A stretch of 64,000 nucleotides of DNA from Gammaproteobacteria bacterium (GCA_030066085.1 JASJCI010000001.1:132380-196379); one strand, 5' to 3'. Shown: positions 46,549 through 62,931, counted from the first letter of the stretch. Program-made: numbers and translations. Notes: generated by a model from the letters alone, not told the origin.

Positions 46549-46563
46549 GCGGAGGACTGTTCA

Positions 46564-47493: not shown

Positions 47494-47497
47494 AACA

Positions 47498-49399
47498 ATG
47501 GCAGAAGACAAAGAAAAACTGTTCGAGATCGAAGGCCTGCGTATCAGCGCCAAGAATGACGAAGGCGAAGAGGTCAAGATCGTCAAGGGTGTGGATTTCA
47601 ACATCCACAAGGGTGAAGTCGTCGCGCTGATCGGCGAATCCGGCTCGGGTAAAACCACGATCTCGCTGGCGACCCTGGCCTATACCAAGCCGGGCCTGTA
47701 CTTCTCCGGTGGCGAGTGCCGCCTGTTCGGCAAGGACGTATTGTCGATGTCACCGGTCGAACAACGCGACCTGCGCGGCGGCAACGTCGCCTACCTCGCG
47801 CAAAGCGCGGCGGCAACCTTCAACCCGGCGATCACGATCAACGAACAGGTCACCGAGGCCGCCGTGTTGCACGGTCGCCTGACCCAGGAAGAAGCCAACG
47901 AGCGCGCGATCGAGCTGTACCACGCGCTGGAACTGCCCGACGCCGATCGCATCGGCTATCGTTACCCGCACCAGGTATCGGGCGGACAGCTGCAGCGCCT
48001 GATGGCGGCGATGGCCCTGTGCGGCAAACCCGACCTGATGGTGCTCGACGAACCGACCACCGCGCTCGACGTCACCACCCAGATCGAGGTGCTGAAAGCC
48101 TTCAAGAAGGTTATCCGCGAGCAGAACTCGGCCGCGATTTACGTCACCCACGACCTCGCCGTGGTGGCGCAGGTTGCCGATCACATCGTCGTGCTCTATG
48201 CCGGCGAGGTCATGGAACAGGGTTCGGCGGACCAGATCATCAACAACCCGCAACACGCCTACACCAAGCGCCTGATGGCGGCCGCGCGGCCGAAACCGAC
48301 CTCGGGCATGGGCGAGGCCGTCACCAACGAGCATCATCGCGACATCGACAATATCGAGGTCAAGGACATGACCGCGGGTTACGGCGGCATCGTCGACGGC
48401 GAACCGGTGGTGCCGATCCTGCGCGACATCAATGTCAGCGTCAGAAACGGCCACGTGGTCGGGGTCATCGGTGAATCGGGCTGCGGCAAGTCGACGCTCG
48501 CGCGCGTCATGGCCGGCATGCTGCCGCCCGCGCGCGGCGACGTGATACTCGACGGCAAGAAACTCGAGGGGTCACTGAAAAACCGTTCGCTGGAAGAACT
48601 GCAAAAAGTTCAGTTCGTGTTCCAGATGGCGGATACCGCGTTGAATCCGAAACAGCTGATCGGCAATATCATCGGCCGCCCGCTCGAGTTTTACCACGGC
48701 CTGACCGGCAAGGAAAAACACAAGAAGGTGTCCGAGATCCTGGAAATGGTCGAATTGCCACCGGCATTCGCCAGCCGCTACCCGATGGAGCTTTCGGGCG
48801 GGCAGAAGCAGCGCATCAACCTGGCGCGCTCGCTGGCGGCCAACCCGGAAGTCATGCTGTGCGACGAGGTTACCTCGGCCCTCGACAGTATCGTTGGCGC
48901 CAACGTCATCAAGCTGTTGACCGATCTGCGCAACAAGACCGGTGTATCCTTCGTTTTCATCAGTCACGACCTGTCGACGGTAGCGTCGTTTGCCGATGAA
49001 ATCGTCGTACTCTACGCCGGCCGCGTGGTCGAGCAGGGCCCCGTCAACGATGTACTGGATCCGCCTTTCCATCCCTACACGCGCCTGTTGATCAGCTCGG
49101 TTCCCGAGATGCGGATCGGCTGGCTCGAGGATACGATGCAGAAACGCGAGATGGCGGTCGGTATCGCCCGCGGTGTCGAAATCACGCGCCGCGGCTGCCC
49201 GTTCTACAATCGCTGCCCGATGGCGATCGAGGGCACCTGCGAAATGGACACCCCGCCGCTGCGGCAGCTCAAGGAAGGCCACGAAATCCACTGTCATCAA
49301 ACCATCGAGGCGCTGGAAGAAGCCGAACGCGAAGCGCAGCAGATCCTGCACGGCTACGAAAAAATCGGTGAAGACGATCAGATCCCGACGGCCCACTAA
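47498..49399 (+). CDS. ABC transporter ATP-binding protein, fused tandem ATPase (DppD-DppF-like)
   Basis: 633 aa with two complete Walker A / signature / Walker B sets (GESGSGKTT...SGGQLQRL...[11 protein letters not shown] and GESGCGKST...SGGQKQRI...[11 protein letters not shown]). Confidence 0.9.
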
Positions 49400-49420
49400 A
49401 TCAGAGCGGATGCAAATGAC

Positions 49421-49804
49421 ATGAGCGACTATCCACGTCTTAAGGAAATGGGGATCAATAATCCCCATGAAATCGAAAAATTCGGGATCTACACCGTGGG
49501 GACGACCGACGTGCTGCAGATCACCTACGATCGTAAACCGGGTTCGCTGCTGCCCGTGAGCCGGCGCTACAAGTTCCCGCAGGCGAAGAAATCGGTCATG
49601 GTGGATAGCGGTACCGACAAGGCACAGGTGCTCTACGAGAGTGTCGGTGCGTTTCGCGAAGCGGTGCACGAGCTGGAGCAGCTGCGTGCCGAGCGCGCCA
49701 AGGGCCAGGATGTGGCGGCGTTGATTCGCGAGGAACTGCGCCTGCTCGAGGAAGACATCGCGCTGCGTACGCAATACATCAACTCGCTGGTCGATCGCCT
49801 CTAG
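49421..49804 (+). CDS. Hypothetical protein (DUF3461-like), terminal gene of the ABC operon
   Basis: 127 aa, hydrophilic, with a coiled C-terminus. Confidence 0.45.
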   Translation: MSDYPRLKEMGINNPHEIEKFGIYTVGTTDVLQITYDRKPGSLLPVSRRYKFPQAKKSVMVDSGTDKAQVLYESVGAFREAVHELEQLRAERAKGQDVAALIREELRLLEEDIALRTQYINSLVDRL

Positions 49805-49814
49805 ACTGCTGCAG

Positions 49815-49840
49815 GCCGGTCTCGCCGCGACGAGACCGGC
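49815..49840. terminator. Perfect 10-bp hairpin GCCGGTCTCG-CCGCGA-CGAGACCGGC between convergent genes (no T-tract)
   Basis: Read directly. Lacks U-run on either strand, so terminator function is uncertain. Confidence 0.3.
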
Positions 49841-49841
49841 G

Positions 49842-51137
49842 CTATTCCCCTTCCCTGCCCTTCGCCTGCTCGTCGGCGTATTCTTCGCGCGCGTAGTACT
49901 GCGTCGCGTCGATAGCCGATCCCGACGGGTGTACCGCGGTCAGCGTGCTCGGTCCCTGCTTCGCCAGCGGCACGGGCGGCCGGCGCAACATCCTGAGCAG
50001 GGCAAACAGTCCCAGCAGTCCATGCGCAACGGCGATCGACCAGAACAACGCGGCATCGCCGTAGCGGTCCATCAATGCCGCGATCAGCACCGGTCCGACG
50101 ATCGCGCCGATACCGCCGGTCAATACCAGCGCACCGCTGGCGGCGATCATCTGGCTCGGATCCAGGTGGTCGTTGGCGTAGGCGATACAGATCGAGTACA
50201 GCGGAAAAGCGAGCCCGCCGAGCACCGCCACCGCGGCGAACAATACCGGTAACGAGTAAGCCGCTGCCGGTACGCAGGCGGCCGCCGCAACCGCGGTCAG
50301 CAGGCTGATCGTGGTCAGCACGATGCGCCGGTCGAAACGGTCGGACAAAATGCCAAGCGGTGCCTGCAGCACCAGGATTCCGATTACCGCGGCGGTCATG
50401 AAATACGAGATGTCGCGAATATCCAGCCCGGTACGCTGGGCGTAAACCGGGCCGAGCGCAAAAAAAGTCGCGGTGACGAGACCAACCACGAACATGCTGA
50501 CCACGCCCAGGGGCGTGATCCGGTACAGCTGCAGCAGGCTCAGGCGCACCGAGTCACGATGCGCCGGCGTCGATCCCGCGGACAACAGCAGCGGCACGAC
50601 CGCGATCGAGATCAGGATCGACGTCAGGATGAACAGCGGGTACTCTTCCGGCGGCGCCAGGTTCAGCAGCAGCTGGCCACCGCCCACGCCGAGATAGGTC
50701 ACCAGCATGTACAGCGACAGCAGGCTGCCGCGGGTTTCATTGCTGGCACGATCGTTGAGCCAGCTCTCGGCGACGATGTAGAGCCCGGCGAAACAGAAGC
50801 CCGTCACCAGGCGCATCGCGATCCACACCGGCACCGTCACGAACAGCGCGTGCACCAGGATCGCGGTCGAGGATATCGCGGCGAAGGCGGCAAATACGCG
50901 CACGTGGCCAACGCGCACGGTCAGCCATGGAGTCGCCAGCGAACCGAGCAGAAAACCGACATAGAATACCGACATGACCAGGCCGGTCAGGGTGGCGGAA
51001 AACCCGGCCAGGCCGGCACGCACCGGCAGCAGCGTGCCCTGCAGGCCGTCGCCGAGCATCAGGATGCCGAAACCGGCCAGCAGCGCCCAGGACGAGGCCA
51101 GCGCATCCAGCAATCCCGCCCTGGGCCTAGTCACCAC
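49842..51137 (-). CDS. MFS transporter (GTG start inferred)
   Basis: About 430 aa with 12 TM segments. TM1 (LLDALASSWALLAGFGILMLG) requires a start upstream of the first ATG. GTG at 51135-51137 gives an 11-nt overlap with the tetR stop. The track start at 51260 is inside tetR. Confidence 0.7.
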   Translation of the reverse strand: MVTRPRAGLLDALASSWALLAGFGILMLGDGLQGTLLPVRAGLAGFSATLTGLVMSVFYVGFLLGSLATPWLTVRVGHVRVFAAFAAISSTAILVHALFVTVPVWIAMRLVTGFCFAGLYIVAESWLNDRASNETRGSLLSLYMLVTYLGVGGGQLLLNLAPPEEYPLFILTSILISIAVVPLLLSAGSTPAHRDSVRLSLLQLYRITPLGVVSMFVVGLVTATFFALGPVYAQRTGLDIRDISYFMTAAVIGILVLQAPLGILSDRFDRRIVLTTISLLTAVAAAACVPAAAYSLPVLFAAVAVLGGLAFPLYSICIAYANDHLDPSQMIAASGALVLTGGIGAIVGPVLIAALMDRYGDAALFWSIAVAHGLLGLFALLRMLRRPPVPLAKQGPSTLTAVHPSGSAIDATQYYAREEYADEQAKGREGE

Positions 51138-51750
51138 GATCTCCCGAGCCCGGCACACGCAGCGCGACTCCCTGGCTGTGCAACAGTCGATAGCAGTCGT
51201 GGCGCGCATCCTCGAGGCTGAAGTCTTCCGCGTGCAGGCAGTATTCGAGCCACAGGCCATCGATCATTGCGATCAACTGGCGCGCAAGGCTTTCCGCTTC
51301 GAATCCGGGATCGTCGCGGCGGACAAAAGCCGCCAGGGCCCTGGCTATGCGGGCCTTGTAGTTCTGGTAGCGCTGTTCGTGCAGGACACGTAATTCAGCA
51401 TTGGTCGCGATCTCGCCCCAGACGGTGAGCCACGCCCGCAGGTTGGAGCGGCGAAAGGTCGACGCGTCAAAATTGGAATCGATCACGTGGCGCAGCACAT
51501 GCTCGGCGACCTCCGATGGAAAAGATTCGACCAGGTGCGCCGTCATCGCGGCATAAATCTGTAGCAGCAGATCTTCCTTGGTCCTGAAGTGATGGTTGAT
51601 CAGGCCGCGCGAAACCTGTGCTTCGCGACAGATGTTGTCGATCGTAAAGGCGCTGATGCCGCCGTTGCCGAGACAGCGGATACCGGCCTCGATCAGCTCG
51701 CGTTTACGCACCTCGGCGGTTTTACGGCGATATGCAATATTCCTATCCAA
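51127..51750 (-). CDS. TetR/AcrR-family transcriptional regulator
   Basis: 207 aa with N-terminal HTH (FTIDNICREAQVSRGLINHHFRTKEDLL). Confidence 0.8.
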   Translation of the reverse strand: MDRNIAYRRKTAEVRKRELIEAGIRCLGNGGISAFTIDNICREAQVSRGLINHHFRTKEDLLLQIYAAMTAHLVESFPSEVAEHVLRHVIDSNFDASTFRRSNLRAWLTVWGEIATNAELRVLHEQRYQNYKARIARALAAFVRRDDPGFEAESLARQLIAMIDGLWLEYCLHAEDFSLEDARHDCYRLLHSQGVALRVPGSGDRGD

Positions 51751-51851
51751 TTCAGTTATTTACCGGGCGTTGATGCAAAAAAAATATTGCGCCAGCATAC
51801 ACCTTGTTGTACGATCGTTCAACAAGAAACCCGGACCGAAGGCGACAGCCG

Positions 51852-53909
51852 ATGCCGAGAAATCCGCATTACGACATCCTTTTCGAACCCGTGCAGATCG
51901 GTCCTGTAACTGCACCCAACCGCTTTTACCAGACACCGCACGCCACCGGCATGGGCAACATGCGGCCCAACAGTTCGGCCGCGCTGCGTGCAACCAAGGC
52001 TGCTGGCGGCTGGGGCGTGGTTTGCACCGAATACTGCTCGATCCATCCGAGCGCGGACGAAACGCCGTACGCCTACCTCAGCCTGTGGGACGATGAAGAC
52101 CTCGAACAACTCGCGCTCACCTGCGATGCGATTCACCGGCAGGGTTCGCTTGCCGGCGTCGAACTCTGGCATGGCGGATCGCATTCCAACAATCGCGGCA
52201 CTCGTTTACCGCCCCTGGCACCCACGGGCTGCTCGACCATTTTTACCGGCGCCGGTCAGCAGGTCCGTGAAATGGACACCTCGGATATCGCCGCGCTGCG
52301 TCGCTGGCAGCGCGATGCCGCGCTGCGGGCGCAACAGGCCGGTTTCGATATCATTTATGTCTATGCCGGTCACGATTACCTGCCCTTCCAGTTCCTCTCA
52401 CCGCTGACCAATCGCCGCACGGACGAGTACGGCGGCAGTTTCGAGAACCGGGCCCGGCTGCTGCGCGAAATGATCGAAGACACGCGCGAGGTTGTCGGCG
52501 ACCGTTGCGCGGTCGCGGTCCGACTGGCGATCGACGAACTGCATGGCGCGCCTGGAATAAGCGCGGATGGTGACGGGCGACGGGTCATCGAATACCTCGG
52601 CGAACTGCCCGATCTTTGGGATATCGCGCTCGGCGGCAGCCTCGGCAACGATTCCTGCAGTGCGCGCTTCGCCGCCGAGGGTTACCAGGAGCCATACGCC
52701 GGTGTCGTCAAACAGCTGACCTCCAAACCGGTGGTTTCGGTCGGTCGTTTTACGTCGCCGGATACCATGGTCGGCCAGGTACGCCGCGGTGTGCAGGATT
52801 TCATCGGTGCCGCGCGGCCCTCGATCGCCGATCCGTTTCTGCCGTGGAAGATCGACCATGGCCACGAAGATCAGATCCGCGAATGCATCGGCTGCAATAT
52901 CTGCCGCTCGGCCAACAACGAGGGCGCACCGCTGCGCTGTACCCAGAATCCGACCATGGGCGAAGAATGGCGCCGCGGCTGGCACCCGGAAAAGATCGCC
53001 CCGGCGCGACGCGATGCCTCGATACTGGTGGTCGGCGGCGGTCCCGCGGGACTCGAGGCCAGCCTCGCTCTCGGCCGCCGCGGCTACCGGGTTACGCTGG
53101 CGGAGGCCGGCGACGAACTCGGTGGCCGCCTGTTGCTCGAATCCACCCTGCCCGGTCTCGCCAACTGGATTCGCGTGCGCGATTACCGCAGTCACCTGCT
53201 TGCGCAAATGGGCCGGATCGATGTTTACCTGCAAAGCCCGCTCGCTGCCGCCGACCTGGTCGAATTCGATGCCGATGCCATCGTGCTCGCGACCGGCAGC
53301 CGCTGGCGCCGGGACGGCGTCGGCACCCATGGACGCCAGCCGGTGCCAGTCGAATCTAGCGCGCGCGTACTCACGCCGAACGACCTGTTCGCCGACGAAC
53401 TGCCGCCAGGAGATTTTGTCATCTACGATGACGACCACTATTTCATGGCGGGCGCACTGGCCGAAATGCTGCTGCAGGCGGGGCGTCGAGTTACCTACCT
53501 GACCCCCGCAAGCAGCGTCTCCAGCTGGACCGCCATGACCGACGAACAGGATTTCATCCAGCGACGACTGCTGCAGCTGGGACTCGCCACCGGCTTTAAC
53601 CGGCGGCTGGAACGCGTCGAGCGGGAACGCCTGTTCAGCTGCTGCACCTACAGCGGCGAGGTTTTCGATTACGATTTCGATAACCTGCTGCTGGTAACCG
53701 GCAGGTTGCCGAACGACGAACTGTTTCGCCAGTTATCGATCGACGCCACGCGCATCGGCGACTGTTTTGTACCCTCGAGTATCGCCGATGCGGTTTACGC
53801 CGGGCACCGGCTTGCACGCGAGTTCGACGAGGACCCCGCCACGCTGGTAGCGAAACGTGAACGCGCCCGGCTGCAGCAACTGGATCTCGACGAGGTAGCC
53901 ATGCCATGA
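51852..53909 (+). CDS. Two-domain flavin/[4Fe-4S] oxidoreductase, OYE-like TIM barrel fused to FAD/NAD(P)-binding domain (trimethylamine dehydrogenase / DgcA / StcD N-demethylase / 2,4-dienoyl-CoA reductase family)
   Basis: 685 aa from ATG 51852. OYE N-terminus (LFEPVQIGPVTAPNRFYQTPH), Cys cluster CIGCNICRSANNEGAPLRC and dinucleotide-binding GxGxxG (ILVVGGGPAGLEAS). Confidence 0.8.
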   Translation: MPRNPHYDILFEPVQIGPVTAPNRFYQTPHATGMGNMRPNSSAALRATKAAGGWGVVCTEYCSIHPSADETPYAYLSLWDDEDLEQLALTCDAIHRQGSLAGVELWHGGSHSNNRGTRLPPLAPTGCSTIFTGAGQQVREMDTSDIAALRRWQRDAALRAQQAGFDIIYVYAGHDYLPFQFLSPLTNRRTDEYGGSFENRARLLREMIEDTREVVGDRCAVAVRLAIDELHGAPGISADGDGRRVIEYLGELPDLWDIALGGSLGNDSCSARFAAEGYQEPYAGVVKQLTSKPVVSVGRFTSPDTMVGQVRRGVQDFIGAARPSIADPFLPWKIDHGHEDQIRECIGCNICRSANNEGAPLRCTQNPTMGEEWRRGWHPEKIAPARRDASILVVGGGPAGLEASLALGRRGYRVTLAEAGDELGGRLLLESTLPGLANWIRVRDYRSHLLAQMGRIDVYLQSPLAAADLVEFDADAIVLATGSRWRRDGVGTHGRQPVPVESSARVLTPNDLFADELPPGDFVIYDDDHYFMAGALAEMLLQAGRRVTYLTPASSVSSWTAMTDEQDFIQRRLLQLGLATGFNRRLERVERERLFSCCTYSGEVFDYDFDNLLLVTGRLPNDELFRQLSIDATRIGDCFVPSSIADAVYAGHRLAREFDEDPATLVAKRERARLQQLDLDEVAMP

Positions 53910-55426
53910 CGACTCGAAGCCGCCGCCGCGCGGGCCGCAAGCCCCGCAACGCGGGTTCGATCGCGCAATTGCCCTGGCGGCAATTGCGTTACCGCCACGC
54001 GCCGCATGCATTGCTCGGCGAAGATGAACTCGAGCAGATTCATCGCACTGGCCTGCGCATTCTGCAGGAAACCGGCATGCTGATCCTGTCGGCACGGGCG
54101 CGCGATCTCTATGCCGGCGCGGGCTGCCGCGTGGATGCTGATTCACCGCGCGTGTTTTTCGATGCCGAGCTGGTGGAATCCCTGCTCGCGAGCGCGCCGT
54201 CGAGTTTCGACCTGCAGGCACGTAACCCCGACAGGAACATCCGCATTGGCGACGGTCACGCGGTGTTCACGTCGGTTGGCGGCCCGGCCTACGTGATGGA
54301 CATCGACAACGGCCGGCGCAACGGTACCTATGATGAAATGTGCAACTTCATCCGCCTGGTGCAGAGCCTGGACATCATTCACCAGGAAGGCGGCGGCGGT
54401 TTCGAGGCCATGGACCTGCCCGCCGCCAGCCGGCACCTCGACCTGTTTTATGCCCAGTGCACGCTGCTGGACAAGAACTGGGTGCCCTGGACCATGGGTC
54501 GCGGCCAGGCGCTGGACGCGATCGAAATGGCCGCGATCAGCCTGGGACGGGACCCGCGGGACCTGGTCGACAACCCGGCCCTGTGCGGCATCATCAATAC
54601 CAACACGCCGCTGCAGCTGGACATTCCGATGGCCGAGGGCCTGATCGCAATGGCCGAGTATGGCCAGGCATCGGCGATCACGCCGTTTACGCTGTCGGGC
54701 GCGATGGCGCCGGTGACGCTGGCCGGTGCGCTGGCGCTGCAGCACGCCGAGGCCATGGCCGGTATCGCGCTGACCCAGATCGTACGCCCGGGCGCACCGG
54801 TGCTGTATGGCGGTTTTACCTCGAACGTCGACATGAAGTCGGGGTCGCCGGCCTTCGGCACGCCCGAGTACCTGCAGGCCGCGCAGGCATCCGGGCAGCT
54901 GGCCCGTCGCCTCGGTGTGCCGTTCCGTTCGAGCAACGTCAACGCGGCCAACTGGACCGACGCGCAGGCCGCCTACGAAAGCTGCATGTCGCTGTGGGGC
55001 GCGATCAGCGGCCAGGCCAACATGATCAAGCATGCCGCCGGCTGGCTGCATGGCGGCCTCACTGCATCGCTGGAAAAACTGGTTATCGACGCCGAACTGC
55101 TGCAGATGGTTGCGGCCAGTCTGAAACCGTTTGCGGTCGACGAATCGACGCTGGCGCTGGATGCCATTCGGGAAGTCGGCCCGGCCGGCCACTTTTTTGG
55201 CAGCGCGCACACGATGGAACGCTACCAGACGGCGTTTTACGCGCCGCTGGTCTCGAACTGGGACAACCATGAAACCTGGCTCGAGTCCGGCGCGGTCACC
55301 ACCGAGCAACGCGCCAACCAGGTCTGGAAACAACTGCTGGCCGAATACGAGCAGCCGCCGCTGGACCCCGCGATCGACGAGGCGCTGCAGGCATACGTGG
55401 GCCGACGCAAAAAGGAACTCGAGTAG
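53906..55426 (+). CDS. MttB-superfamily methyltransferase (non-pyrrolysine trimethylamine/glycine-betaine methyltransferase homologue)
   Basis: 506 aa TIM-barrel MttB family (…ILQETGMLILSARARDLYAGAGCRVD...GGFTSNVDMKSGSPAFGTPE...). No in-frame amber codon. Start ATG overlaps the upstream stop (ATGA). Confidence 0.75.
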   Translation: MTTRSRRRAGRKPRNAGSIAQLPWRQLRYRHAPHALLGEDELEQIHRTGLRILQETGMLILSARARDLYAGAGCRVDADSPRVFFDAELVESLLASAPSSFDLQARNPDRNIRIGDGHAVFTSVGGPAYVMDIDNGRRNGTYDEMCNFIRLVQSLDIIHQEGGGGFEAMDLPAASRHLDLFYAQCTLLDKNWVPWTMGRGQALDAIEMAAISLGRDPRDLVDNPALCGIINTNTPLQLDIPMAEGLIAMAEYGQASAITPFTLSGAMAPVTLAGALALQHAEAMAGIALTQIVRPGAPVLYGGFTSNVDMKSGSPAFGTPEYLQAAQASGQLARRLGVPFRSSNVNAANWTDAQAAYESCMSLWGAISGQANMIKHAAGWLHGGLTASLEKLVIDAELLQMVAASLKPFAVDESTLALDAIREVGPAGHFFGSAHTMERYQTAFYAPLVSNWDNHETWLESGAVTTEQRANQVWKQLLAEYEQPPLDPAIDEALQAYVGRRKKELE

Positions 55427-55429
55427 CGC

Positions 55430-55816
55430 CTAGCCTGCTGCCATCAGTTCGATCTCGACGCGAAATTCCGTCCGCGTAAACCCGCTCACGATCAGCAGCG
55501 TCGAGGCCGGCAAGGCCTCGATATCCTTCAACCAGGCATCACGTGCTGCCATGTACGCCGGCATATCCTGTCGCGCAAGCACAAAAGCGCTGAGGTGCAC
55601 GACATTACGACGCTGCATCCCGGCTTCCGCCAGGATAGCGTCGAAATGCCTGAAAATCATTTGCGCCTGGTCACCGACATCGGTTGGCACATCACCACCG
55701 GCATCCAGCGCGAGTTGTCCCGAGGTACGCAACAGTCGTTGGCTGGCGGGCCAGGCGACAGCGTGTGAATAGCGGCCGAACGGTGCGGCGAGAATCGACG
55801 GGTTCAGGGTTTGCAT
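55430..55816 (-). CDS. RidA/YjgF-family reactive enamine/imine deaminase-like protein
   Basis: 128 aa (…PFGRYSHAVAWPASQRLLRTSGQLALD...RVEIELMA), chorismate-mutase-like fold family. Confidence 0.65.
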   Translation of the reverse strand: MQTLNPSILAAPFGRYSHAVAWPASQRLLRTSGQLALDAGGDVPTDVGDQAQMIFRHFDAILAEAGMQRRNVVHLSAFVLARQDMPAYMAARDAWLKDIEALPASTLLIVSGFTRTEFRVEIELMAAG

Positions 55817-56118
55817 CGGCGTCTCCGGTTCGAATGCGGGTAAAGTTACCCCGTTGGCGGATAATTGTTAATGCCGGATCGAGTGGGTGCCGCGACTTGC
55901 CGAGCACCGGACGAAGGGCTAGAATTTCGGTCCACCTCTGGCACAGGTACGTATCAACAGGGCCACTGAAGGGACGGCGTTAGGCCGCGCCCAGGCCTGG
56001 AGATATTGATGATTGTGCCCGGACTTTCCCCGGTTAATGCCTTGTCGTGCGCTGGCGCACGTACGGCGCAATGTACCTGCAAGTCGCCGAGCGACGTATG
56101 CCGGCCCGGAGGGCTTCG

Positions 56119-56922
56119 ATGAAAACACAGGCTTACTGGGCCGATCTGTCACGGCGCGACTTTACCCGGCTCGACGCCGCGGCAACGATCGCGGTACTGC
56201 CCATTGGCGCCTTCGAACAGCACGGCCCCCATCTGCCGGTTTCGGTCGATACCGATCTGACCAACGAAACCCTGCGCCGCTGTTTCGCCTATCTCGAACC
56301 GTCGCTGTCGGTGCTCGTGATGCCCGCCATCAGCGTCGGCAAGAGCATGGAACATGCGAATCATCCCGGCACCATCAGTCTCGGCACGGAAACCTTTACC
56401 CGGGTGGTGATGGAATACGGCGCCAGCGTTGCCCGCGCCGGCATCCGCAAGCTCGTATTGTGTAACGGGCACGGCGGCAATCGCGCGCCGCTGGGCAACG
56501 TGCTGCGCGACCTGCGGATCGAGCAGGGTTTGATCACGGTGCTGTGTGCGTGGAGTTCATTCTATGACGCTGCCGAAATCGTCGGCGCCGACGAGTATCG
56601 GCACGGCATTCACGGCGGCGATCACGAAACCAGCGCGATGCTGGCCTGTCGCGGCGATCGGGTCGACATGACACTGGCGCAAGATTTCCGCACCGCCACC
56701 GACGACTGGCGGCGCGAGTTCGAGTTTCTCGATATCGGCGGCCCGGCCCAGGTCGGCTGGGTCATGGACGATTTGTGCGCCTCGGGTGCCAGCGGCAATG
56801 CCGCCGCGGCCACACCCGAAAAAGGCGAAGCCATCCTCGACAATTCGGCGCGCGGCTTTGCCCGCTTCCTGGCCGAATTCGATCGTTTCGAAATGGCGTC
56901 ACGGGAAACCGGCGATGACTGA
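56119..56922 (+). CDS. Creatininase-family amidohydrolase (creatinine amidohydrolase-like)
   Basis: 267 aa from ATG 56119 (MKTQAYWADLSRRDFTRLDAAATIAVLPIGAFEQHGPHLPVSVDTDL...). Has the Creatininase fold with metal-ligand His/Asp/Glu pattern. Confidence 0.7.
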   Translation: MKTQAYWADLSRRDFTRLDAAATIAVLPIGAFEQHGPHLPVSVDTDLTNETLRRCFAYLEPSLSVLVMPAISVGKSMEHANHPGTISLGTETFTRVVMEYGASVARAGIRKLVLCNGHGGNRAPLGNVLRDLRIEQGLITVLCAWSSFYDAAEIVGADEYRHGIHGGDHETSAMLACRGDRVDMTLAQDFRTATDDWRREFEFLDIGGPAQVGWVMDDLCASGASGNAAAATPEKGEAILDNSARGFARFLAEFDRFEMASRETGDD

Positions 56923-58195
56923 GGTGCGATCAGACCTCGACGGCTATATCGCGGACCTGCGCATTCCGCTCGACCTGCTGCAAAATGTCTCCGCATTTGG
57001 CGGCCTGGCGGACGGCGATTGCCTGCACGGCGATTTACGGGTGCACGACGGTCGTGCCGAACAACTGTTACCCCCCGGACAGGCGCCGCAACACGAGGTG
57101 CTATTCGACGCGGACGGTCGCATCGCGCTTAGCGGACTGATCGAGGTACACGCCCATCTCGACAAGTGCCACACGATCGATCGACTGCACGGAATCGGCG
57201 GCGATCTCGAGCGCGCGATCGCGGCCCAGGGACCGGACAAACAGGCCTGGACCTTCGATGATATCCATCGACGCGCAAGCCGCGGCCTGGACGAGTTCGT
57301 GGCAGCCGGGTGCCGGGCAGTCCGCAGTCACGTCGACTGGGGCAACAGCGCCGACGCACCGCTGGCCTGGGAAGTGCTGAATCAGATCAGGGTCGCCCGG
57401 GCCGAGCAAATCGAATTACAGCTCAGCGCCCTGATCGACCTCGATATGTTCCACGACGGCTCGATCGTCGAAGCCATGCTGTCGCGGATTTCGGCGGATG
57501 ACGGAATCGCCGGGGTTTTCCTGCTGGGACACGCCCGGCCCGCAGCGGCCTTGCGCACCGCGTTCTCGATGGCGGACCGCTTCGGTCTCGATCTCGACTT
57601 CCACGTCGACGAAAGCCTAGCTCCCGGTCTCAATGGCGTGGAACAGATAGCCGACCAGGCCCTGGCCAGCGGTTATCGCGGGCGTATCCTGTGCGGTCAC
57701 GCCTGTAGCCTGGTCAATCGTGGCGCAGACGACCTGGCACGCATCCTCGACAAGCTTGCGCGGCTCGACATCTCGATTTGCGCGCTGCCGTCGACCAACC
57801 TGTACCTGCAGGGACGCGGTCCGGGGACACCGGACCGTCGCGGCCTGACGCGGCTGCGCGAACTGGCCGCGGCCGGCGTCAATATTACCGTCGGCAGCGA
57901 CAATGTCGCCGACGCCTTCTGTCCCCTGGGGCGCCACGATCCGATGCACTCGCTGGCCACGGCCGTGCTCGGCGCACATCTCGACCCGCCCTTCGGACGC
58001 TGGCTCAAATCGATCACGGTGGATGCCGCGCGGGCACTCGGTAGCCGGGAACGCTGGATCGACGGCAGCCAACTCGGCGACCTGTGGCTGAGCGATGCCC
58101 GTCACACCGCGGAGCTGATCAACCTCGGATTGTCTTCACCGCGAAGTTTGCAGGATTTGTGCAAACCCGCGCTCGGGGAGGCGCGCCGGGCATGA
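56915..58195 (+). CDS. Amidohydrolase-superfamily deaminase (cytosine / creatinine deaminase, AtzC-like)
   Basis: 426 aa from ATG 56915, 8-nt overlap with the upstream gene. Metal-binding HxH (LIEVHAHLD) and downstream His/Asp ligands (DFHVDES, VGSDNVAD). Confidence 0.65.
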   Translation: MTEVRSDLDGYIADLRIPLDLLQNVSAFGGLADGDCLHGDLRVHDGRAEQLLPPGQAPQHEVLFDADGRIALSGLIEVHAHLDKCHTIDRLHGIGGDLERAIAAQGPDKQAWTFDDIHRRASRGLDEFVAAGCRAVRSHVDWGNSADAPLAWEVLNQIRVARAEQIELQLSALIDLDMFHDGSIVEAMLSRISADDGIAGVFLLGHARPAAALRTAFSMADRFGLDLDFHVDESLAPGLNGVEQIADQALASGYRGRILCGHACSLVNRGADDLARILDKLARLDISICALPSTNLYLQGRGPGTPDRRGLTRLRELAAAGVNITVGSDNVADAFCPLGRHDPMHSLATAVLGAHLDPPFGRWLKSITVDAARALGSRERWIDGSQLGDLWLSDARHTAELINLGLSSPRSLQDLCKPALGEARRA

Positions 58196-59631
58196 ACGAC
58201 AGCACGCTGACCTCCGGCAAGATCAAACTCGACTGGGATGCGTTCAAGGCCGAGTTCGGCGATATCGAAATCATCGACAAACCGGCACGGGTGAAGAAAA
58301 GTTCGCGCGACTTCTTCTGGTACAGCCCGATACTCGAGCGCCAGCTGGAAGACGCCTACGGCGATATCGTCGCGCGGCCAGCCAGCCAGGAGCAACTCGG
58401 CGAATGCCTGCGCATCGCATACGCCTGGGACATGCCATGCGTGATTCGCGGTGGCGGTACCGGCAATTACGGCCAGGCCGTCCCGCTCGACGGCGGCCTG
58501 ATCATCGACATGACGCGTCTCGATCGCATCGTCGAAATCGGCGATGACCACATACGCGTCGAGGCCGGCGCGGTAATCGCCGACGTCAACCGGGCGCTGC
58601 ATCGGCACGGGCGCGAACTGCCGGTATTTCCGTCGACCCAGAATATTGCCACCGTCGGCGGCTTTATCGGCGGCGGCTCCGGCGGCATCGGATCGTTTCG
58701 CCACGGTCCCCTGGCGGCGCCCGGCATCGTGCCCCGGCTGAAAGTCATGTCGCTGGAAGAGAGCCCGCAATTACACGTCTTCGACGACGCCGACATCAAC
58801 ATCGTGCACCACGCCTGGGGTATGAACGGCGTGATCTACGAGGCGACCCTGCAAACCGTGCCGCGCTGCGACTGGATCAACGTGATCGCATCGTTTGCCG
58901 ATTATCCGACTGCATTTGCCGCGGGCATGAGCATCGGCGGCGACAGGTCGCTCGGCGCCAAGCTGCTGTCGGTGCTCGACGCCCGTTTCGCGGTCTACTT
59001 TACTGCGCTCGGCGAGCGCATTCCCTGCGACCGTGCGCTGATGAACAGCATGGTGCCGCGCGAACGACTCGATCGATTCAGGGACCTGGTCGAGTCCAGC
59101 GGTGGCAGTCTCGATCTTGCCCTCGACGAAGCCGAAACCGCGGCCGCCGAAATACCGCATGTATTCGAGTTTTCCTACAACCACACGACGCTGCAGGCGC
59201 TGAAGGCGGACAAGTCGGTGACCTACCTGCAGGTGGGCGCGCCGTTGCCGCTCGACGTCGAAAACATCAAAACATTACATGAACTGCTGCACGACGAAGT
59301 GCTGATGCATCACGAATTCAGCGTGCGCGACGACGGCCTGGCCGCCTGGGATATCCCTGTCATTCGCTACACCACGGAAGCGCGCCTGTACGAGATTATC
59401 GACATTTTTCGCCAGCATGGCTGTGCCATTGCCGACCCGCACCAGAACAACGTCGAGGGCGGCGGCATGAAAAACGCCAATTTCAAACACCTCGCGTGGA
59501 AAAAGCGGCTCGATCCGAAAGACCTGCTCAACAGCGGCAAGAGCCTGCTCTGGCCGCGGGTCAAAGACCTGCCGGCCGAACAGATCGAAAACCTGACCCG
59601 GGCCGACCTGGAACCCGGAGCAATCGCTTGA
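58192..59631 (+). CDS. FAD-binding (PCMH-type, FAD_binding_4) oxidoreductase, GlcD / D-lactate dehydrogenase-like
   Basis: 479 aa from ATG 58192 (ATGA overlap). FAD-binding motifs (PCVIRGGGTGNYGQAVP, ATVGGFIGGGSGG). Confidence 0.7.
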   Translation: MNDSTLTSGKIKLDWDAFKAEFGDIEIIDKPARVKKSSRDFFWYSPILERQLEDAYGDIVARPASQEQLGECLRIAYAWDMPCVIRGGGTGNYGQAVPLDGGLIIDMTRLDRIVEIGDDHIRVEAGAVIADVNRALHRHGRELPVFPSTQNIATVGGFIGGGSGGIGSFRHGPLAAPGIVPRLKVMSLEESPQLHVFDDADINIVHHAWGMNGVIYEATLQTVPRCDWINVIASFADYPTAFAAGMSIGGDRSLGAKLLSVLDARFAVYFTALGERIPCDRALMNSMVPRERLDRFRDLVESSGGSLDLALDEAETAAAEIPHVFEFSYNHTTLQALKADKSVTYLQVGAPLPLDVENIKTLHELLHDEVLMHHEFSVRDDGLAAWDIPVIRYTTEARLYEIIDIFRQHGCAIADPHQNNVEGGGMKNANFKHLAWKKRLDPKDLLNSGKSLLWPRVKDLPAEQIENLTRADLEPGAIA

Positions 59632-60599
59632 ACGCCTTCGAACGCCTGCAGCAAACGGCCCTGCGCGTAACCGCTCGCCGGGACGAAGCGGATGACATCC
59701 TGTCGCTGGCACTGGCGGCGCCCGACGGCAGCGAACTGCCGCCGGTCGAGCCAGGCAGTCACCTGGTCGTACATCTCGCCAACGGCCTGGTGCGCCAGTA
59801 TTCGCTGACCGACAGCGCGGGCCGTCGCGATCATTACCACCTCGGAATCCTGCGCGATCCACGCAGCCGCGGCGGCTCGGCCTTTATTCACGACCGGGTC
59901 GAAGTTGGCGCCACGCTCGAGGTAACCGGTCCGCGCAATCACTTTCCGCTGGTACCGGGCGCGGCACGATCACTGCTGATTGCCGGTGGCATCGGTATTA
60001 CGCCGATCCTGTCGATGGCGCGCAGCCTGCATGCCGCGGACGCGGATTTCGAGCTGCACTATTGCGCCCGCAGCCGCGGCCAGGCAGCCTTCGTCGACTG
60101 GCTCGAGAACTCCGGCTTTGCCGATCGGGTGCATTTCCACTTCGATGGCGGGGATCGCGCACGCGGGCTCGACGTCACGACCCTGCTGCAACCGCTGATC
60201 CCGGGCCAACACCTGTACTGTTGCGGCCCGACCGGCCTGATGGATGCGGTCGAGGCCGCGGCCAGTCACTGGCCGCGCGGCTCGGTCCACTTCGAGCGCT
60301 TCAAGGCCAACCAGGACGGGCTGGGCGACAACCGACCCTTTCGCATGGTGTTAACGCGCTCCGGGCTCGAACTCGAGGTGCCGGCGGAGCGCAGCGCGCT
60401 CGACGTGTTGCGCGACCATGGTTTCGAAATCGAGAGTATCTGCGAGGAAGGTGTCTGTGGCTCCTGCCTGGTCGATGTCGAGGAGGGTGAAATCGATCAT
60501 CGCGACCAGATCCTGACGCCGGCGGAGCGGCGTGACAACGACGTCATGACGGTTTGCTGCTCGCGAGCGCTTGGTGAAATCCTGGTTTTGAATTTATGA
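59628..60599 (+). CDS. Phthalate-dioxygenase-reductase/VanB-type oxidoreductase (flavin-binding, NAD-binding, C-terminal plant-type [2Fe-2S] ferredoxin)
   Basis: About 323 aa. Flavin-binding RQYSL, NAD-binding LLIAGGIGITPILSM and ferredoxin CEEGVCGSCLVDV...CC. Start inferred at TTG 59628, which overlaps the upstream TGA. The track GTG 59496 would overlap the oxidase by 135 nt. Confidence 0.65.
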   Translation: MNAFERLQQTALRVTARRDEADDILSLALAAPDGSELPPVEPGSHLVVHLANGLVRQYSLTDSAGRRDHYHLGILRDPRSRGGSAFIHDRVEVGATLEVTGPRNHFPLVPGAARSLLIAGGIGITPILSMARSLHAADADFELHYCARSRGQAAFVDWLENSGFADRVHFHFDGGDRARGLDVTTLLQPLIPGQHLYCCGPTGLMDAVEAAASHWPRGSVHFERFKANQDGLGDNRPFRMVLTRSGLELEVPAERSALDVLRDHGFEIESICEEGVCGSCLVDVEEGEIDHRDQILTPAERRDNDVMTVCCSRALGEILVLNL

Positions 60600-60637
60600 A
60601 ACGCCTGCCGAACCTTACTCGAATGGCGCCGATCTAG

Positions 60638-61129
60638 ATGAACGAATCGCTGGTACTGGCGGCCCAGTTTCTGCTCTGTGCCGGTATGAACGGCTGGATG
60701 CTGGTCGCGGTTTACGATAACTGGCGCCATCCGCAACTCAACAAAACGGGCGTGGCGATGGTCATGCGCTTCGACCTGATGGCGCGCGAGTACCCGGACG
60801 ATTTTCGCCAGCTGCAGCACCGCCGGATCGACAACCCGGGCATCATCCGTGCGATTTATTACTTCGTGGTCCTGTTCGAAACGGCGGCCGCGGCAACCCT
60901 GACCTTCGGCAGCCTGTGCCTGGGGCTGGCGCTGGCGGGCGCGGTCGAACCCGCATTTGCGCGTTCCGCCGCATTGGTCGGCGCACTTGTTTTTACCCTG
61001 AACTGGATCGGATTACTGATCGGCGGCAACTATTTCGCCTACTGGTACTGCCATTTCCAGGCCCAGGCGACCCATTTCCTGCTAACCCTGTGGGGCATTG
61101 CGCTGCTGCTCCTGCTGATACTGCCCTGA
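60638..61129 (+). CDS. Small integral membrane protein (DUF2165-like)
   Basis: 163 aa with four TM helices. Confidence 0.45.
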   Translation: MNESLVLAAQFLLCAGMNGWMLVAVYDNWRHPQLNKTGVAMVMRFDLMAREYPDDFRQLQHRRIDNPGIIRAIYYFVVLFETAAAATLTFGSLCLGLALAGAVEPAFARSAALVGALVFTLNWIGLLIGGNYFAYWYCHFQAQATHFLLTLWGIALLLLLILP

Positions 61130-61326
61130 TAGCCACTTCTGGCCGGGAGCCTTTTGCAAGCGGCCAGCTCGCATTGGCATGGCGTGTCGATCTGTGATAA
61201 AACACCGGATCATAAGAGGCAGATTCCCTGCTGCCCATAACAAGGCCAACAGCTAGCCGAAACTGACAACGAAGAGGCCCCAAGGCCCGAACGGAACCAC
61301 AATCAAGCAACCCTGAGGTACTACAC

Positions 61327-62931
61327 ATGGTGGACATCAAAGATCTCGAAAAAGCGGCCCGGGAAGGTAAGCTCGACCGTCGCGAATTCATCAAGCGCGC
61401 CGGCGCCCTCGGCCTCGCCGCGCCGTTTGCAACCACGCTGCTGACCCAGGCGGTACAGGCCGCAACACCGAAGAAAGGCGGCTATTACAAGCTCGGTTAC
61501 GGGCACGGCTCGACCACGGACTCGCTCGACCCCAGCACCCATGAAAACGGTTTCATGACCGCCACGGTTTATTCCTACGCCAACCACCTGTTCGAAGTCG
61601 AGAATACCGGTAAACTGGTGCCGGAACTGGCCGAGAGCTTCGAGGCCAGCAAGGACGCCACGACCTGGGTGATCAAGCTGCGCAAGGGCGTCGAGTTTCA
61701 CAACGGCAAGTCGTTCGGCGCCGACGACGTGATCGCGGCGATCAATCACCACCGCGGCGAGGATTCCAAATCCGCGGTCAAGTCGCTGCTCGACCCGGTC
61801 GTCGAAATGAAGAAAACCGGCAGTCACGAAGTGACGTTCACCCTCGCATCCGGCAACGCTGATTTCCCGTATATCCTGTCCGATTATCACCTGCCGATTC
61901 TGCCCGAGAAAGACGGCAGGATCGACTGGCAGGCGGGTGTCGGTACCGGCGGTTACATGGTGGAAAAATTCGACCCGGGCGTGAGCCTCAAGCTCAAGCG
62001 CAATCCCAACTACTGGAAAGCCGGGCGCGCGCACTTCGACGAGGCCGAACTCATTTCCCTGATCGACGTCACCGCGCGGCAGAACGCGGTCATGAACGAA
62101 GAAGTGCATGCGATCGACCGCTGCGATCCGAAGACCGTGCACCTGCTCGGTCGCAATCCGAAAATCCGGATTCTCGAGTCCACCGGCACGCTGCATTACA
62201 CGATGCCGATGCGGGTCAGCCAGGCGCCGTTCGACGATTACGACGTGCGCATGGCGCTCAAACTCGCCGTCGATCGCGAGCAGCTGGTGAAGAAAATTCT
62301 GCTCGGCCACGGTGCGATCGGCAACGACCATCCGATCTCGACCGCAAATCCTTATCACAACGGCGAAATGCCGCAGCGCGCCTACGATCCGGACAAGGCA
62401 AGGTTCCATATCAAGAAGGCCGGCATGGAAAACCAGCAGATCGATCTCAGCACCTCCGATGCCGCCTTCTCCGGCGCGGTCGACGCGGCGCTACTGGTGA
62501 AGGATTCGGCCGCCAAGGCCGGCATCAACATCAACGTCATACGCGAGCCGAAAGACGGCTACTGGTCGAACGTGTGGAACAAGAAGGGCTGGTGCACCTG
62601 CTACTGGGGCGGCCGCCCGACCGAGGACTGGATGTTTACCGCCGCCTATGTCGCGGAGAGCAAGTGGAACGACACCGACTGGCGCACCGGCCCCGCGGCG
62701 GACCGGTTCAACGAGCTGGTGGTCGCGGCGCGCTCCGAGCTCGACACTGCGAAACGGCGCGAGATGTACCACGAGTGCCAGCAACTCGTGAACGACGACG
62801 GCGGCGCGCTGGTGCCGATGTTCGCCAACTTTATCCAGGCGATCAACAAGCAGGTCGTGCATGCCGACCAGGTCGCGGCCAACTGGGACATGGACGGTCA
62901 CAAGTCGATCGAACGCTGGTGGTTCGCCTGA
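61327..62931 (+). CDS. ABC transporter substrate-binding protein, family 5, Tat-exported (second system)
   Basis: 534 aa with Tat motif DRREFIKRAGALGLAAP. About 40% identical to the SBP at 43484 in aligned blocks (PKKGG..., VTWHDGKP / VEFHNGKS). Confidence 0.85.
   Translation: MVDIKDLEKAAREGKLDRREFIKRAGALGLAAPFATTLLTQAVQAATPKKGGYYKLGYGHGSTTDSLDPSTHENGFMTATVYSYANHLFEVENTGKLVPELAESFEASKDATTWVIKLRKGVEFHNGKSFGADDVIAAINHHRGEDSKSAVKSLLDPVVEMKKTGSHEVTFTLASGNADFPYILSDYHLPILPEKDGRIDWQAGVGTGGYMVEKFDPGVSLKLKRNPNYWKAGRAHFDEAELISLIDVTARQNAVMNEEVHAIDRCDPKTVHLLGRNPKIRILESTGTLHYTMPMRVSQAPFDDYDVRMALKLAVDREQLVKKILLGHGAIGNDHPISTANPYHNGEMPQRAYDPDKARFHIKKAGMENQQIDLSTSDAAFSGAVDAALLVKDSAAKAGININVIREPKDGYWSNVWNKKGWCTCYWGGRPTEDWMFTAAYVAESKWNDTDWRTGPAADRFNELVVAARSELDTAKRREMYHECQQLVNDDGGALVPMFANFIQAINKQVVHADQVAANWDMDGHKSIERWWFA

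Follow-up and report, generated by a model that had tools for sequence, protein, structure and literature searches.

Two self-contained catabolic modules are the probable content of a ten-gene region in a gammaproteobacterial genome

Ten adjacent genes of a gammaproteobacterial genome raise the question of whether they encode one catabolic pathway or more than one. They occupy positions 49842-61129 of a stretch of 64,000 nucleotides from a Gammaproteobacteria bacterium (GCA_030066085.1 JASJCI010000001.1:132380-196379), which is called the window in this work and has a G+C content of about 62%. The initial annotation had read all ten genes as one island with an undescribed pathway for a ring-containing nitrogen compound. 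We have arrived at a different reading, to which we give a probability of about 0.62, where the region consists of two self-contained catabolic modules side by side and not of one pathway. Module A (49842-55426) consists of a BetI-type TetR regulator, an MFS transporter, a flavin-FeS enzyme of the trimethylamine dehydrogenase (TMADH) family, and a non-pyrrolysine MttB. Module B (55430-61129) consists of a RidA-family protein, a creatininase-family protein, a CodA-like amidohydrolase, a VAO-type FAD enzyme, a PDR-type reductase, and a DUF2165 protein. The single island does not hold, as relatives of module A exist without module B, none of 80 loci collected with MttB has a module B gene, and none of 80 loci collected with the FAD enzyme has the OYE gene. 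The idea of an undescribed pathway survives for module B and not for the ten genes as a whole.

The genes of the region and the candidate operator that lies among them are as follows.

49842-51158, minus strand: MFS transporter, 438 aa as called (PF07690, E=1e-32), in the same direction as the TetR gene
51127-51711, minus strand: TetR regulator with BetI-type C-terminal domain (PF13977 TetR_C_6, E=6e-22), divergent from the OYE and MttB genes
51803-51826, no strand: 24-bp palindrome (inverted repeat), candidate TetR operator
51852-53909, plus strand: TMADH/histamine-dehydrogenase-family OYE/[4Fe-4S]/FAD protein (PDB matches), called the OYE protein below
53906-55426, plus strand: non-pyrrolysine MttB-superfamily methyltransferase (PF06253, E=2e-188)
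55430-55816, minus strand: RidA-family protein (PF01042, E=6e-19)
56119-56922, plus strand: creatininase-family metal hydrolase (PF02633, E=1e-64)
56915-58195, plus strand: CodA-like amidohydrolase (PF07969)
58192-59631, plus strand: VAO/PCMH-type FAD enzyme with FAD_binding_4 domain (PF01565, E=5e-28), the signature gene of module B
59628-60599, plus strand: PDR/VanB-type reductase with C-terminal [2Fe-2S] (Fer2, NAD_binding_1, and DmmA-like_N matches), TTG start
60638-61129, plus strand: DUF2165 small membrane protein (PF09933, E=7e-24)

The protein families were assigned by Pfam and NCBIfam profile searches, which upheld all the family calls that had been made before. The ten open reading frames (ORFs) are present, and a separate public gene call agrees with them; it was made on identical DNA in the gammaproteobacterial assembly GCA_029979825.1. 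None of the proteins of the region reaches an NCBIfam equivalog cut-off. The start-stop overlaps, which were read from the junction sequences, are also real: ATGA at the junctions of OYE with MttB and of the amidohydrolase with the FAD enzyme, TTGA (with the TTG start) at the junction of the FAD enzyme with the reductase, and the 8-nt overlap ATGACTGA at the junction of the creatininase-family gene with the amidohydrolase. Translational coupling thus holds inside two plus-strand operons. The description of ten tightly packed genes stands for these overlaps but not for a single packed operon. The RidA gene is on the minus strand, where it is convergent with MttB across a 3-nt gap and divergent from the creatininase-family gene, from which 302 nt separate it. 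These orientations imply no fewer than four transcription units, which are TetR-MFS (minus), OYE-MttB (plus), RidA (minus), and creatininase to DUF2165 (plus). Consensus scans for promoters and terminators gave counts not above those of shuffled sequence. A nucleotide search of the whole region against plasmids returned weak partial matches to the OYE gene only and no characterised operon.

The relatives of both modules were collected separately. Metagenome contigs were scanned with the MttB protein, which yielded 80 loci. A small alignment of the FAD enzyme was searched against one genome per species, which yielded at least 590 loci, and the counts given for module B are from the best 80 of these. 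The co-occurrence counts relied on are based on tblastn; the ORFs of the related loci were clustered after filtering by a crude GC3 criterion.

The closest relative in the metagenome scan is L092, which has an MttB that is 78% identical to that of the window. By blastn, L092 1-8907 aligns to window 46486-55400 (75% identity) and L092 9056-11767 aligns to window 61304-63998 (78.5% identity). Only 148 bp separate the two aligned segments in L092, in place of 5.9 kb here, which makes the RidA-to-DUF2165 block an indel. This block is also absent from L174, a 762-kb contig with an OYE protein that is 74% identical. The gene order in L174 is ABC importer, DUF3461, MFS, TetR, OYE, and MttB, directly followed by a substrate-binding protein (SBP), two permeases, an ATPase, a 312-aa protein, and a sulfatase. 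The proteins of L092 and L174 are 72-78% identical to those of the window, and both loci are colinear with the window on both sides of the missing block. The block and the flanking features that the comparison involves are as follows.

43484-49399, plus strand: upstream Dpp/Opp-type ABC importer (Pfam on gene calls; synteny with module A)
43484-45112, plus strand: SBP_bac_5 of the upstream importer
45598-46548 and 46564-47493, plus strand: permeases of the upstream importer
47498-49399, plus strand: fused ATPase of the upstream importer
49421-49804, plus strand: DUF3461 protein (PF11944, E=1e-18), synteny with module A kept
55401-61303, no strand: 5.9-kb block (module B), indel between MttB and the downstream importer (blastn against L092; gene order of L174)
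61327-62931, plus strand: SBP_bac_5 of the downstream Dpp-type importer, whose permeases and ATPase extend past the window end

These gene calls bear out the Dpp/Opp-type ABC systems reported before on both sides of the region. The upstream importer has orthologues that are 85-86% identical at the same place in L092 and L174. The DUF3461 protein and the MFS transporter have orthologues in L092 that are 70% and 74% identical, respectively, and DUF3461 is found in L174 too. The downstream SBP_bac_5 has a 76% identical orthologue immediately after MttB in L092, and its counterpart holds the same position in L174.

Module A can be reduced further. In L175, a genome of 4.3 Mb, the OYE-MttB pair (10001-13587) is by itself between a radical-SAM gene and a gyrase-type gene, where it adjoins the rpsP-rimM-trmD-rplS ribosomal cluster and has no regulator or transporter. 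The OYE gene adjoins MttB in nine of the 80 metagenome MttB loci, all of which have an MttB that is at least 55% identical. Eight metagenome loci with the OYE-MttB pair also have a TetR gene, as do the loci L007 and L008. The plasmids of Mesorhizobium sp. B2-1-8 and Fuscovulum ytuae carry OYE (63% and 47% identical), MttB (64%), TetR (40% and 34%), and a Dpp-type ABC system. The genes of the RidA-to-DUF2165 block were found in none of the 80 MttB loci (0/80).

The same separation is exhibited from the side of module B. The OYE gene was found in none of the 80 FAD-enzyme loci, which have the amidohydrolase in 68 cases, the creatininase-family gene in 62, and the RidA-family gene in 43. DUF2165 is present in 14 of the 80, in the closest, mostly marine group only.

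The earlier reading as one pathway is weighed against these counts. It says that MttB and the flavin-FeS enzyme strip the methyl groups of one N-methylated, ring-containing compound, the ring of which is left to the creatininase, deaminase, oxidase, reductase, and RidA proteins to break down. The ten genes are adjacent, and the block sits between MttB and the importer that directly trails MttB in the relatives, both of which favour such a pathway. An MttB paralogue also lies within 10 kb of module B in three of the 80 module B loci (L011, L029, and L030), twice beside a DMGDH-type N-demethylase. However, these paralogues are non-orthologous to the window's MttB, and their identity of 50-53% is under the level of about 55% at which OYE co-occurs. 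The MttB of L029 (Arenicellales) belongs to an operon of its own (regulator, aminotransferase, dehydrogenase, MttB), past a threonine synthase gene on the opposite strand. The two close relatives that retain module A and the importer without module B, the zero counts in both sets of loci, and the opposite orientation of RidA, which converges on MttB, speak against one pathway as well, and we consider it quite improbable.

Some points nevertheless count against a strict division into two modules. With an MttB near module B in three loci, a loose functional link of module B to methylamine genes keeps some plausibility. The history of the block at 55401-61303 is compatible both with insertion here and with deletion in the relatives, and the GC content gives no signal between these. 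GC contrast was considered as evidence for a horizontal acquisition of module B and was discarded, since the values are 0.630 for the module B block and 0.639 for module A.

A joint reading, which keeps two modules of separate origin but gives them one substrate, was also considered. It says that module B, as a route for nucleobase-like N-heterocycles, was recruited between MttB and the importer, and that both modules mineralise one heterocyclic betaine with N-methyl groups. Examples would be methylated purines or pyrimidines and compounds that resemble trigonelline or hercynine. In this reading a free-standing PDR-type FMN/[2Fe-2S] reductase would be coupled to the VAO-type flavoenzyme instead of to a Rieske oxygenase. 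We rate this joint use as rather doubtful.

A separate observation comes from the Tabrizicola loci, where a DMGDH-type (DAO and GCV_T) N-demethylase and the MttB paralogue lie together within 10 kb of module B (L011 10674-13187, minus strand; L030 17058-19778, minus strand). This pairing differs from the demethylase pairing of the window.

With the two modules treated separately, the question becomes what each of them does. The MttB of module A is an uninterrupted ORF of 506 codons, of which residues 4-505 match PF06253 at profile positions 2-499 of 500. There is no in-frame UAG for pyrrolysine in the ORF. Its PDB matches include 4YYC (E=7e-107) and MtgB of D. hafniense (9YCE/2QNE, E=1e-99). 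Its score for TIGR02369, the equivalog specific to trimethylamine (TMA), is 287, where the cut-off is 525.

The glycine betaine site of MtgB consists of Y97 and F356, which make pi-cation contacts, and R312 and H348, which bind the carboxylate (Picking et al. 2026, PMC13080624). In a HMMER alignment to 9YCE, where the chain numbering is offset by two, the carboxylate ligands are retained as R341 and H376, and both aromatic residues are replaced by Gly (G125 and G384). In the other quaternary-amine members of the family, R312 is likewise retained, as is H348 in most cases, and the aromatic residues are not (PMC13080624). With the carboxylate ligands kept and the aromatic pair lost, the substrate is therefore probably a quaternary amine with an acidic group other than glycine betaine. 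Glycine betaine itself was rejected as a candidate because of the Gly residues at Y97 and F356. Compared with the quaternary-amine methyltransferases MtgB, MtpB, MtcB, MtyB, and MthB (PMC13080624), the window's MttB is thus alike in its ligands for the acidic group and unlike MtgB in the aromatic pair.

The initial annotation regarded this MttB as corrinoid-less. The underlying observation is correct, as a B12-binding domain was not found in the main ORFs scanned from 13.7 kb of the window to its end and in 10 kb beyond, so that the scan begins about 36 kb ahead of the region. The window and the 10 kb after it likewise contain no corrinoid:THF methyltransferase and no RamA-type activase. The supposed anomaly is not one, because an unlinked corrinoid protein is the published norm in aerobic proteobacteria (PMC12478193). 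In the aerobic Ruegeria pomeroyi, the MttB-family protein MtgB works with the cobalamin-binding MtgC and the pterin methyltransferase MtgD (Mausz et al. 2025, PMC12478193). Both MtgC and MtgD are genetically required for the demethylation of glycine betaine, are encoded elsewhere in the genome, and are common to a split methionine synthase (PMC12478193). Genomes with mtgC and mtgD often have up to seven pfam06253 paralogues, and the authors propose that one MtgC serves all of them (PMC12478193). The missing neighbour is therefore uninformative on corrinoid independence, and a false anomaly is removed: an MttB homologue without a corrinoid neighbour is normal in aerobic proteobacteria.

A corrinoid-independent enzyme that passes the methyl group directly to tetrahydrofolate or another acceptor would agree with the failure to find a B12-binding domain in the scanned ORFs and with the solitary OYE-MttB pair among the housekeeping genes of L175. 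We see it as a remote prospect, as every characterised MttB-superfamily enzyme methylates a corrinoid (PMC13080624) and the corrinoid protein of Ruegeria is unlinked and common to the paralogues (PMC12478193).

The partner of MttB in module A is the OYE protein. Its PDB matches are 3K30 (E=4e-203), 6L6J (E=7e-192), 6DE6 (E=8e-185), and TMADH (E=2e-165), while 2,4-dienoyl-CoA reductase is matched at E=1e-34 only. It aligns over its full length to 3K30, 6DE6, and 1DJN. The architecture consists of an FMN TIM barrel, a [4Fe-4S] motif of the form C-x2-C-x2-C-x11-C, and an ADP/FAD-type domain, with CIGCNICRSANNEGAPLRC present. This three-domain architecture and the [4Fe-4S] motif are shared with TMADH of Methylophilus W3A1 and with the histamine dehydrogenases of Nocardioides simplex (3K30) and Rhizobium (6DE6), as are the catalytic Tyr169, His172, and Asp267 of TMADH; YVYAGH is conserved.

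The OYE protein differs from these enzymes at other positions. Cys30 of TMADH (Cys35 of histamine dehydrogenase), the attachment site of 6-S-cysteinyl FMN, is replaced by Ala (PHATGMG against PHCIGAG and PHCNGMG). Ala is also found at this covalent-FMN position in 1DJQ, the chain of the C30A mutant, and in 6L6J. Of the three residues that form the aromatic bowl of TMADH, Tyr60 is kept in an identical TEYCSI motif, Trp264 is replaced by Leu, and Trp355 is replaced by Asn. Positions 79 and 358 of histamine dehydrogenase are Tyr and Asn. On the basis of these residues, the OYE protein is predicted to be an amine dehydrogenase of the TMADH/histamine-dehydrogenase family with a different substrate; TMA and histamine were both rejected as substrates on the active-site residues. 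The structure 6L6J, which also has no covalent-FMN cysteine, is an orphan structure named 'Oxidored_FMN domain-containing protein'.

The replaced residues also bear on whether module A acts on simple methylamines (trimethylamine and dimethylamine) and not on a betaine. The closeness of the OYE protein to TMADH with its Tyr60-containing TEYCSI motif would suit such substrates, and the automatic JGI name of the homologues is 'dimethylamine/trimethylamine dehydrogenase'. Against this, two of three bowl residues are replaced and Cys30 is Ala, the MttB has no pyrrolysine codon, which TMA methyltransferases need, and keeps the ligands for an acidic group, and the importers are of the peptide/opine type. 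Simple methylamines are thus regarded as very unlikely substrates.

We infer instead that module A, with the flanking Dpp-type importers included, is a two-step N-demethylation unit for a betaine-type quaternary amine with an acidic group. The importer would take up the betaine-type compound. MttB would remove one methyl group and hand it to a corrinoid protein encoded elsewhere, in the manner of MtgB, MtgC, and MtgD. The TMADH-family dehydrogenase would then oxidatively demethylate the resulting tertiary amine to formaldehyde and a secondary amine, a step that is proposed because of its family membership and its retained catalytic residues.

The BetI-type TetR, bound to a putative 24-bp operator, would control the OYE-MttB operon. 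The TetR protein scores 115 and 112 bits against the BetI models, both below the cut-offs of 201 and 118. The palindrome between the TetR and OYE genes (CTTGTTGTACGA/TCGTTCAACAAG) is 92% complementary with no spacer, and a similar palindrome is present in the matching intergenic region of L092 (5316-5339). It is a candidate TetR operator.

Module A can be compared with two known systems. Like the MtgBCD route of Ruegeria, it has a full-length non-pyrrolysine PF06253 protein without a linked corrinoid gene and then a further N-demethylase. It differs from that route in the TMADH-family dehydrogenase, which is ATGA-coupled here, and in the importer, which is of the Dpp/Opp type and not OpuD/OpuA. 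The module is thus akin to the MtgBCD route followed by a flavoprotein demethylase, with its proteins in both enzyme families and in no substrate-defined subfamily tested.

The second system is the catabolism of proline betaine (stachydrine), which proceeds by a Rieske demethylase (Stc2/3/4 or HpbBC) and then by StcD, the N-methylproline demethylase; DgcAB, a dimethylglycine demethylase, is also of relevance. The likeness in pathway logic is that a betaine is first demethylated and that an OYE/FeS flavoprotein demethylase acts next. The difference is the first step, which here is an MttB-type methyl transfer and not a Rieske monooxygenase reaction.

What module A defines is a compact and widely distributed two-gene unit of an MttB and a TMADH-family dehydrogenase without the covalent-FMN cysteine. 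It is relevant to how Gammaproteobacteria of marine and sediment habitats turn over methylated osmolytes.

Further genes were seen with the relatives of module A. A hydrolase of the CocE/NonD family (S15) accompanies OYE, MttB, TetR, and Dpp in the plasmid relatives (L007 19639-21648, minus strand; L008 11181-13139, plus strand). An ORF at L096 17704-19797 (minus strand) was assigned to CocE/NonD solely by its clustering with the L007 gene. The window itself has no CocE/NonD hydrolase. This hydrolase of the relatives and the importers of the peptide/opine type lead us to speculate that the substrate of module A is larger than a simple amino-acid betaine, and the hydrolase hints that the imported substrate may be a betaine ester or amide.

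Past the 3' end of the window (L091 15398-21605, about 1.4-7.6 kb beyond it) lie a protein of about 306 aa without a Pfam match, a sulfatase, and, on the opposite strand, an OpuAC-type betaine/choline ABC system. The protein of about 306 aa downstream of the Dpp-type ABC system is present in L174 too. This locus looks like one for the utilisation of choline-O-sulfate or betaine. The sulfatase and the OpuAC-type system, like the BetI-type domain of the TetR, are in keeping with a betaine-type substrate of module A.

The question for module B is whether its enzymes have the activities that their family names suggest, and the residues indicate otherwise for three of them. The amidohydrolase keeps HxH, H214, E217, H246, and D313 of E. 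coli CodA (1K6W), with Q156 replaced by D and D314 replaced by N. Its best NCBIfam model is PRK07583 (275 against a cut-off of 403). Cytosine was rejected as its substrate by both replacements and by this score, and we infer from the retained residues that it would be a mononuclear-metal deaminase or hydrolase.

The creatininase-family protein scores 80 bits against 235 for the creatininase equivalog TIGR04448 and 123 against 172 for MftE. Its metal ligands E34, H36, D45, and H120 and the catalytic H178 are kept. The GHYEN motif has become GHGGN (NGHGGN), by which Y121 and the metal ligand E122 are lost. Creatinine was rejected as the substrate by this motif and by the equivalog score.

The RidA-family protein has PAS in place of the PAR of E. 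coli YjgF (1QU9), so Arg105, which binds the substrate carboxylate, is Ser here. It scores 38.8 bits against TIGR00004, for which the cut-off is 106. The protein is thus not predicted to be the canonical 2-iminoacid deaminase RidA, and by their residues none of these three proteins is the enzyme for which it is named.

The pathway for creatinine shares with module B the creatininase and cytosine deaminase superfamilies. It differs from module B in the equivalog scores, which are far below cut-off here, in GHYEN, which is GHGGN here, and in CodA Gln156, which is Asp here. Creatinase, N-methylhydantoinase, and sarcosine oxidase are all absent here.

The FAD enzyme matches the PDB entries 6V42/6V43, 'FAD/FMN-containing dehydrogenase', with E=1e-92, and the protein of these entries is 66% identical to the Rhizobium FAD enzyme. 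More than 4000 homologues were found at E<=1e-60, with generic names throughout. No paper on 6V42/6V43 was found in a literature search. A single-sequence AlphaFold model of the FAD enzyme had a mean pLDDT of 34, which is too low for use.

The reductase consists of FNR-like flavin and NAD domains and a C-terminal [2Fe-2S] domain, and it is 35-39% identical over the full length to the PDR/VanB protein of the Klebsiella and Pantoea operons. It had been suggested before that such a VanB-type reductase donates electrons to a demethylating or Rieske oxygenase. This suggestion is not borne out, as the reductase is a recurrent member of module B in Klebsiella, Pantoea, and Alteromonadales, where no Rieske gene lies beside it. 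No Rieske domain was found in the main ORFs scanned from 13.7 kb of the window to its end. A VanA-like gene is present in a few module B loci of Burkholderiales.

The slot after the FAD enzyme varies by lineage. Apart from a PDR-type reductase, it can be filled by a TauD dioxygenase, by a flavodoxin-like NAD(P)H oxidoreductase, or by a VanA-like Rieske oxygenase that is accompanied by a PDR reductase. The reductase is thus an integral but exchangeable member of module B. The variation suggests that a redox or oxygenation step is solved differently by lineage.

Module B exists without module A in at least 590 genome loci at one genome per species, including those of Klebsiella, Pantoea, Rhizobium, Alteromonas, and roseobacters. 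The operon of Klebsiella pneumoniae and Pantoea has eight genes in the order PDR/VanB, amidohydrolase, RidA, creatininase, ABC (three genes), and FAD enzyme. The versions of Rhizobium and Leisingera consist of creatininase, an NMT1-type ABC system, amidohydrolase, FAD enzyme, a flavodoxin-like NAD(P)H oxidoreductase, and RidA. The megaplasmid of Ruegeria TM1040 carries RidA and the order GATase, creatininase, amidohydrolase, FAD enzyme, TauD, SBP5, and DUF2165.

The closest named FAD enzymes (55-56% identity) are those of Gayadomonas and Alteromonas, which carry RidA and the order amidohydrolase, FAD enzyme, and PDR reductase. DUF2165, a creatininase gene, a TonB-dependent receptor, and an NMT1-type ABC system are nearby, and MttB is absent from these loci. 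DUF2165 is found in TM1040, L176, and L177 too, and goes with the marine versions of module B.

The five core families, reductase included, all lie within window 55430-60599, and the same five are found in Klebsiella and Pantoea. No characterised operon with the gene set of the region was found, as had been expected. No functional description of module B was found in the open literature or in the NCBIfam and PDB annotations searched. Module B is thus a very widely conserved cassette of known superfamilies in a combination for which a description was not found. This five-family operon occurs in thousands of genomes, among them those of genetically tractable bacteria such as Klebsiella, Pantoea, Rhizobium leguminosarum, and Ruegeria TM1040. 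The solved but generically named structure 6V42/6V43 makes it a good target for function discovery. Together with 6L6J, it provides orphan structures close to the signature enzymes of both modules, which could be tied to function.

The remaining question is the substrate of module B, which probably degrades a nucleobase-like N-heterocycle by a logic like that of the Rut pathway, although our confidence in the substrate class is low. The VAO-type FAD enzyme would exchange electrons with the PDR-type FMN/[2Fe-2S] reductase. The CodA-like metal amidohydrolase would deaminate or hydrolyse an amidine or amide, and the creatininase-family hydrolase would open a ring or remove a formyl or acyl group. 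The RidA-family protein, which has no Arg105, would dispose of a reactive imine or enamine.

The likeness to the Rut pathway (RutA-G and RutR) consists of an NAD(P)H-dependent reductase, an amidohydrolase, and a RidA-family protein as the analogue of RutC. To these is added a RutR-type (TetR_C_3) regulator of the TetR family, which was seen in about nine module B loci. The differences are that a RutA-type monooxygenase is absent, the oxidising enzyme of module B being of the VAO type, and that its hydrolases are CodA-like and creatininase-like and not of the isochorismatase type. Homology between the two systems is limited to the RidA family.

A second comparison is with the regulon of the xanthine (NMT1 motif) riboswitch, which includes NMT1, a tauA-type ABC system, PDR proteins, Rieske and 2-oxoglutarate (2OG) oxygenases, and amidohydrolases (PMC7373994). 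This riboswitch (RF03054) was identified near module B in two taxa. The first copy (63 bits, L172 1384-1437, minus strand) is on a Klebsiella plasmid a few kb from the module B operon, where it controls an operon of an NMT1 SBP, an amidohydrolase, and a 2OG oxygenase. The second (48 bits, L078 1151-1220, minus strand) is in a Polaromonas metagenome-assembled genome beside module B, where the gene under its control is that of a VanA-like Rieske oxygenase. The amidohydrolase controlled by the first copy has homologues in five further module B loci, NMT1-type binding proteins occur in most of the distant versions of module B, and an Xdh-like gene adjoins the Alteromonas module B.

The NMT1, PDR, Rieske, 2OG oxygenase, and amidohydrolase families thus accompany module B as they do the riboswitch regulon (PMC7373994), with a likeness to Klebsiella HpxDE also. 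The riboswitch, however, is not directly before the module B genes, and the published regulon does not list creatininase-family and VAO-type genes (PMC7373994).

The proposed substrate class is weakened by the riboswitch counts. The xanthine riboswitch is absent from the window and from 86 of the 88 loci searched, and with two of 88 loci the link to purines is therefore weak. The shortfall of every protein of modules A and B against the equivalog models counts against the overall reading of the two modules.

Two candidate assignments were also tried and rejected. General control of module B by the xanthine riboswitch was discarded, since a covariance model made from both copies retrieved nothing more from 88 sources (1.67 Mb); a fuzzy-pattern search for further copies returned none. 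The salvage of thiamine pyrimidine, which the NMT1/THI5-type binding proteins had suggested, was discarded, as the thiamine pyrophosphate riboswitch is absent from the window and from 19 related loci scanned. The NMT1-annotated genes of the xanthine-riboswitch regulon are unrelated to thiamine (PMC7373994).

The same loci bear on whether module B serves nutrition at all. It might salvage or detoxify a heterocycle that is damaged or toxic, for instance an oxidised nucleobase or what is left of a degraded cofactor. Its RidA-family member belongs to a family that is typically one of damage control, the xanthine-riboswitch regulon adjoins it in the two taxa above, and the TonB-dependent receptors and high-affinity ABC systems of some versions suggest scarce substrates. 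However, an importer of its own and a regulator of the LysR, TetR, or RutR type are usual, as in inducible catabolic operons, and module B is often located on rhizobial megaplasmids that are rich in catabolic genes. A role in salvage or detoxification is thus held to be unlikely, and the catabolism of a nucleobase-like N-heterocycle is retained as the probable function.

Other gene clusters were observed in the window away from the two modules. An acetate and glyoxylate-shunt gene cluster lies at 13742-32052, and its genes are as follows.

13742-15688, minus strand: acetyl-CoA synthetase-like gene
16086-20353, plus strand: sensor kinase and sigma-54 response regulator
20308-22113, plus strand: AceK
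27489-28850, minus strand: isocitrate lyase
29077-30048, plus strand: LysR regulator
30118-32052, plus strand: second acetyl-CoA synthetase-like gene

Upstream of the ABC importer, window 36143-40806 contains an aminotransferase, two genes with phosphoribosyltransferase domains, an MFS transporter, a protein with a sulfotransferase domain, and a MatE exporter.

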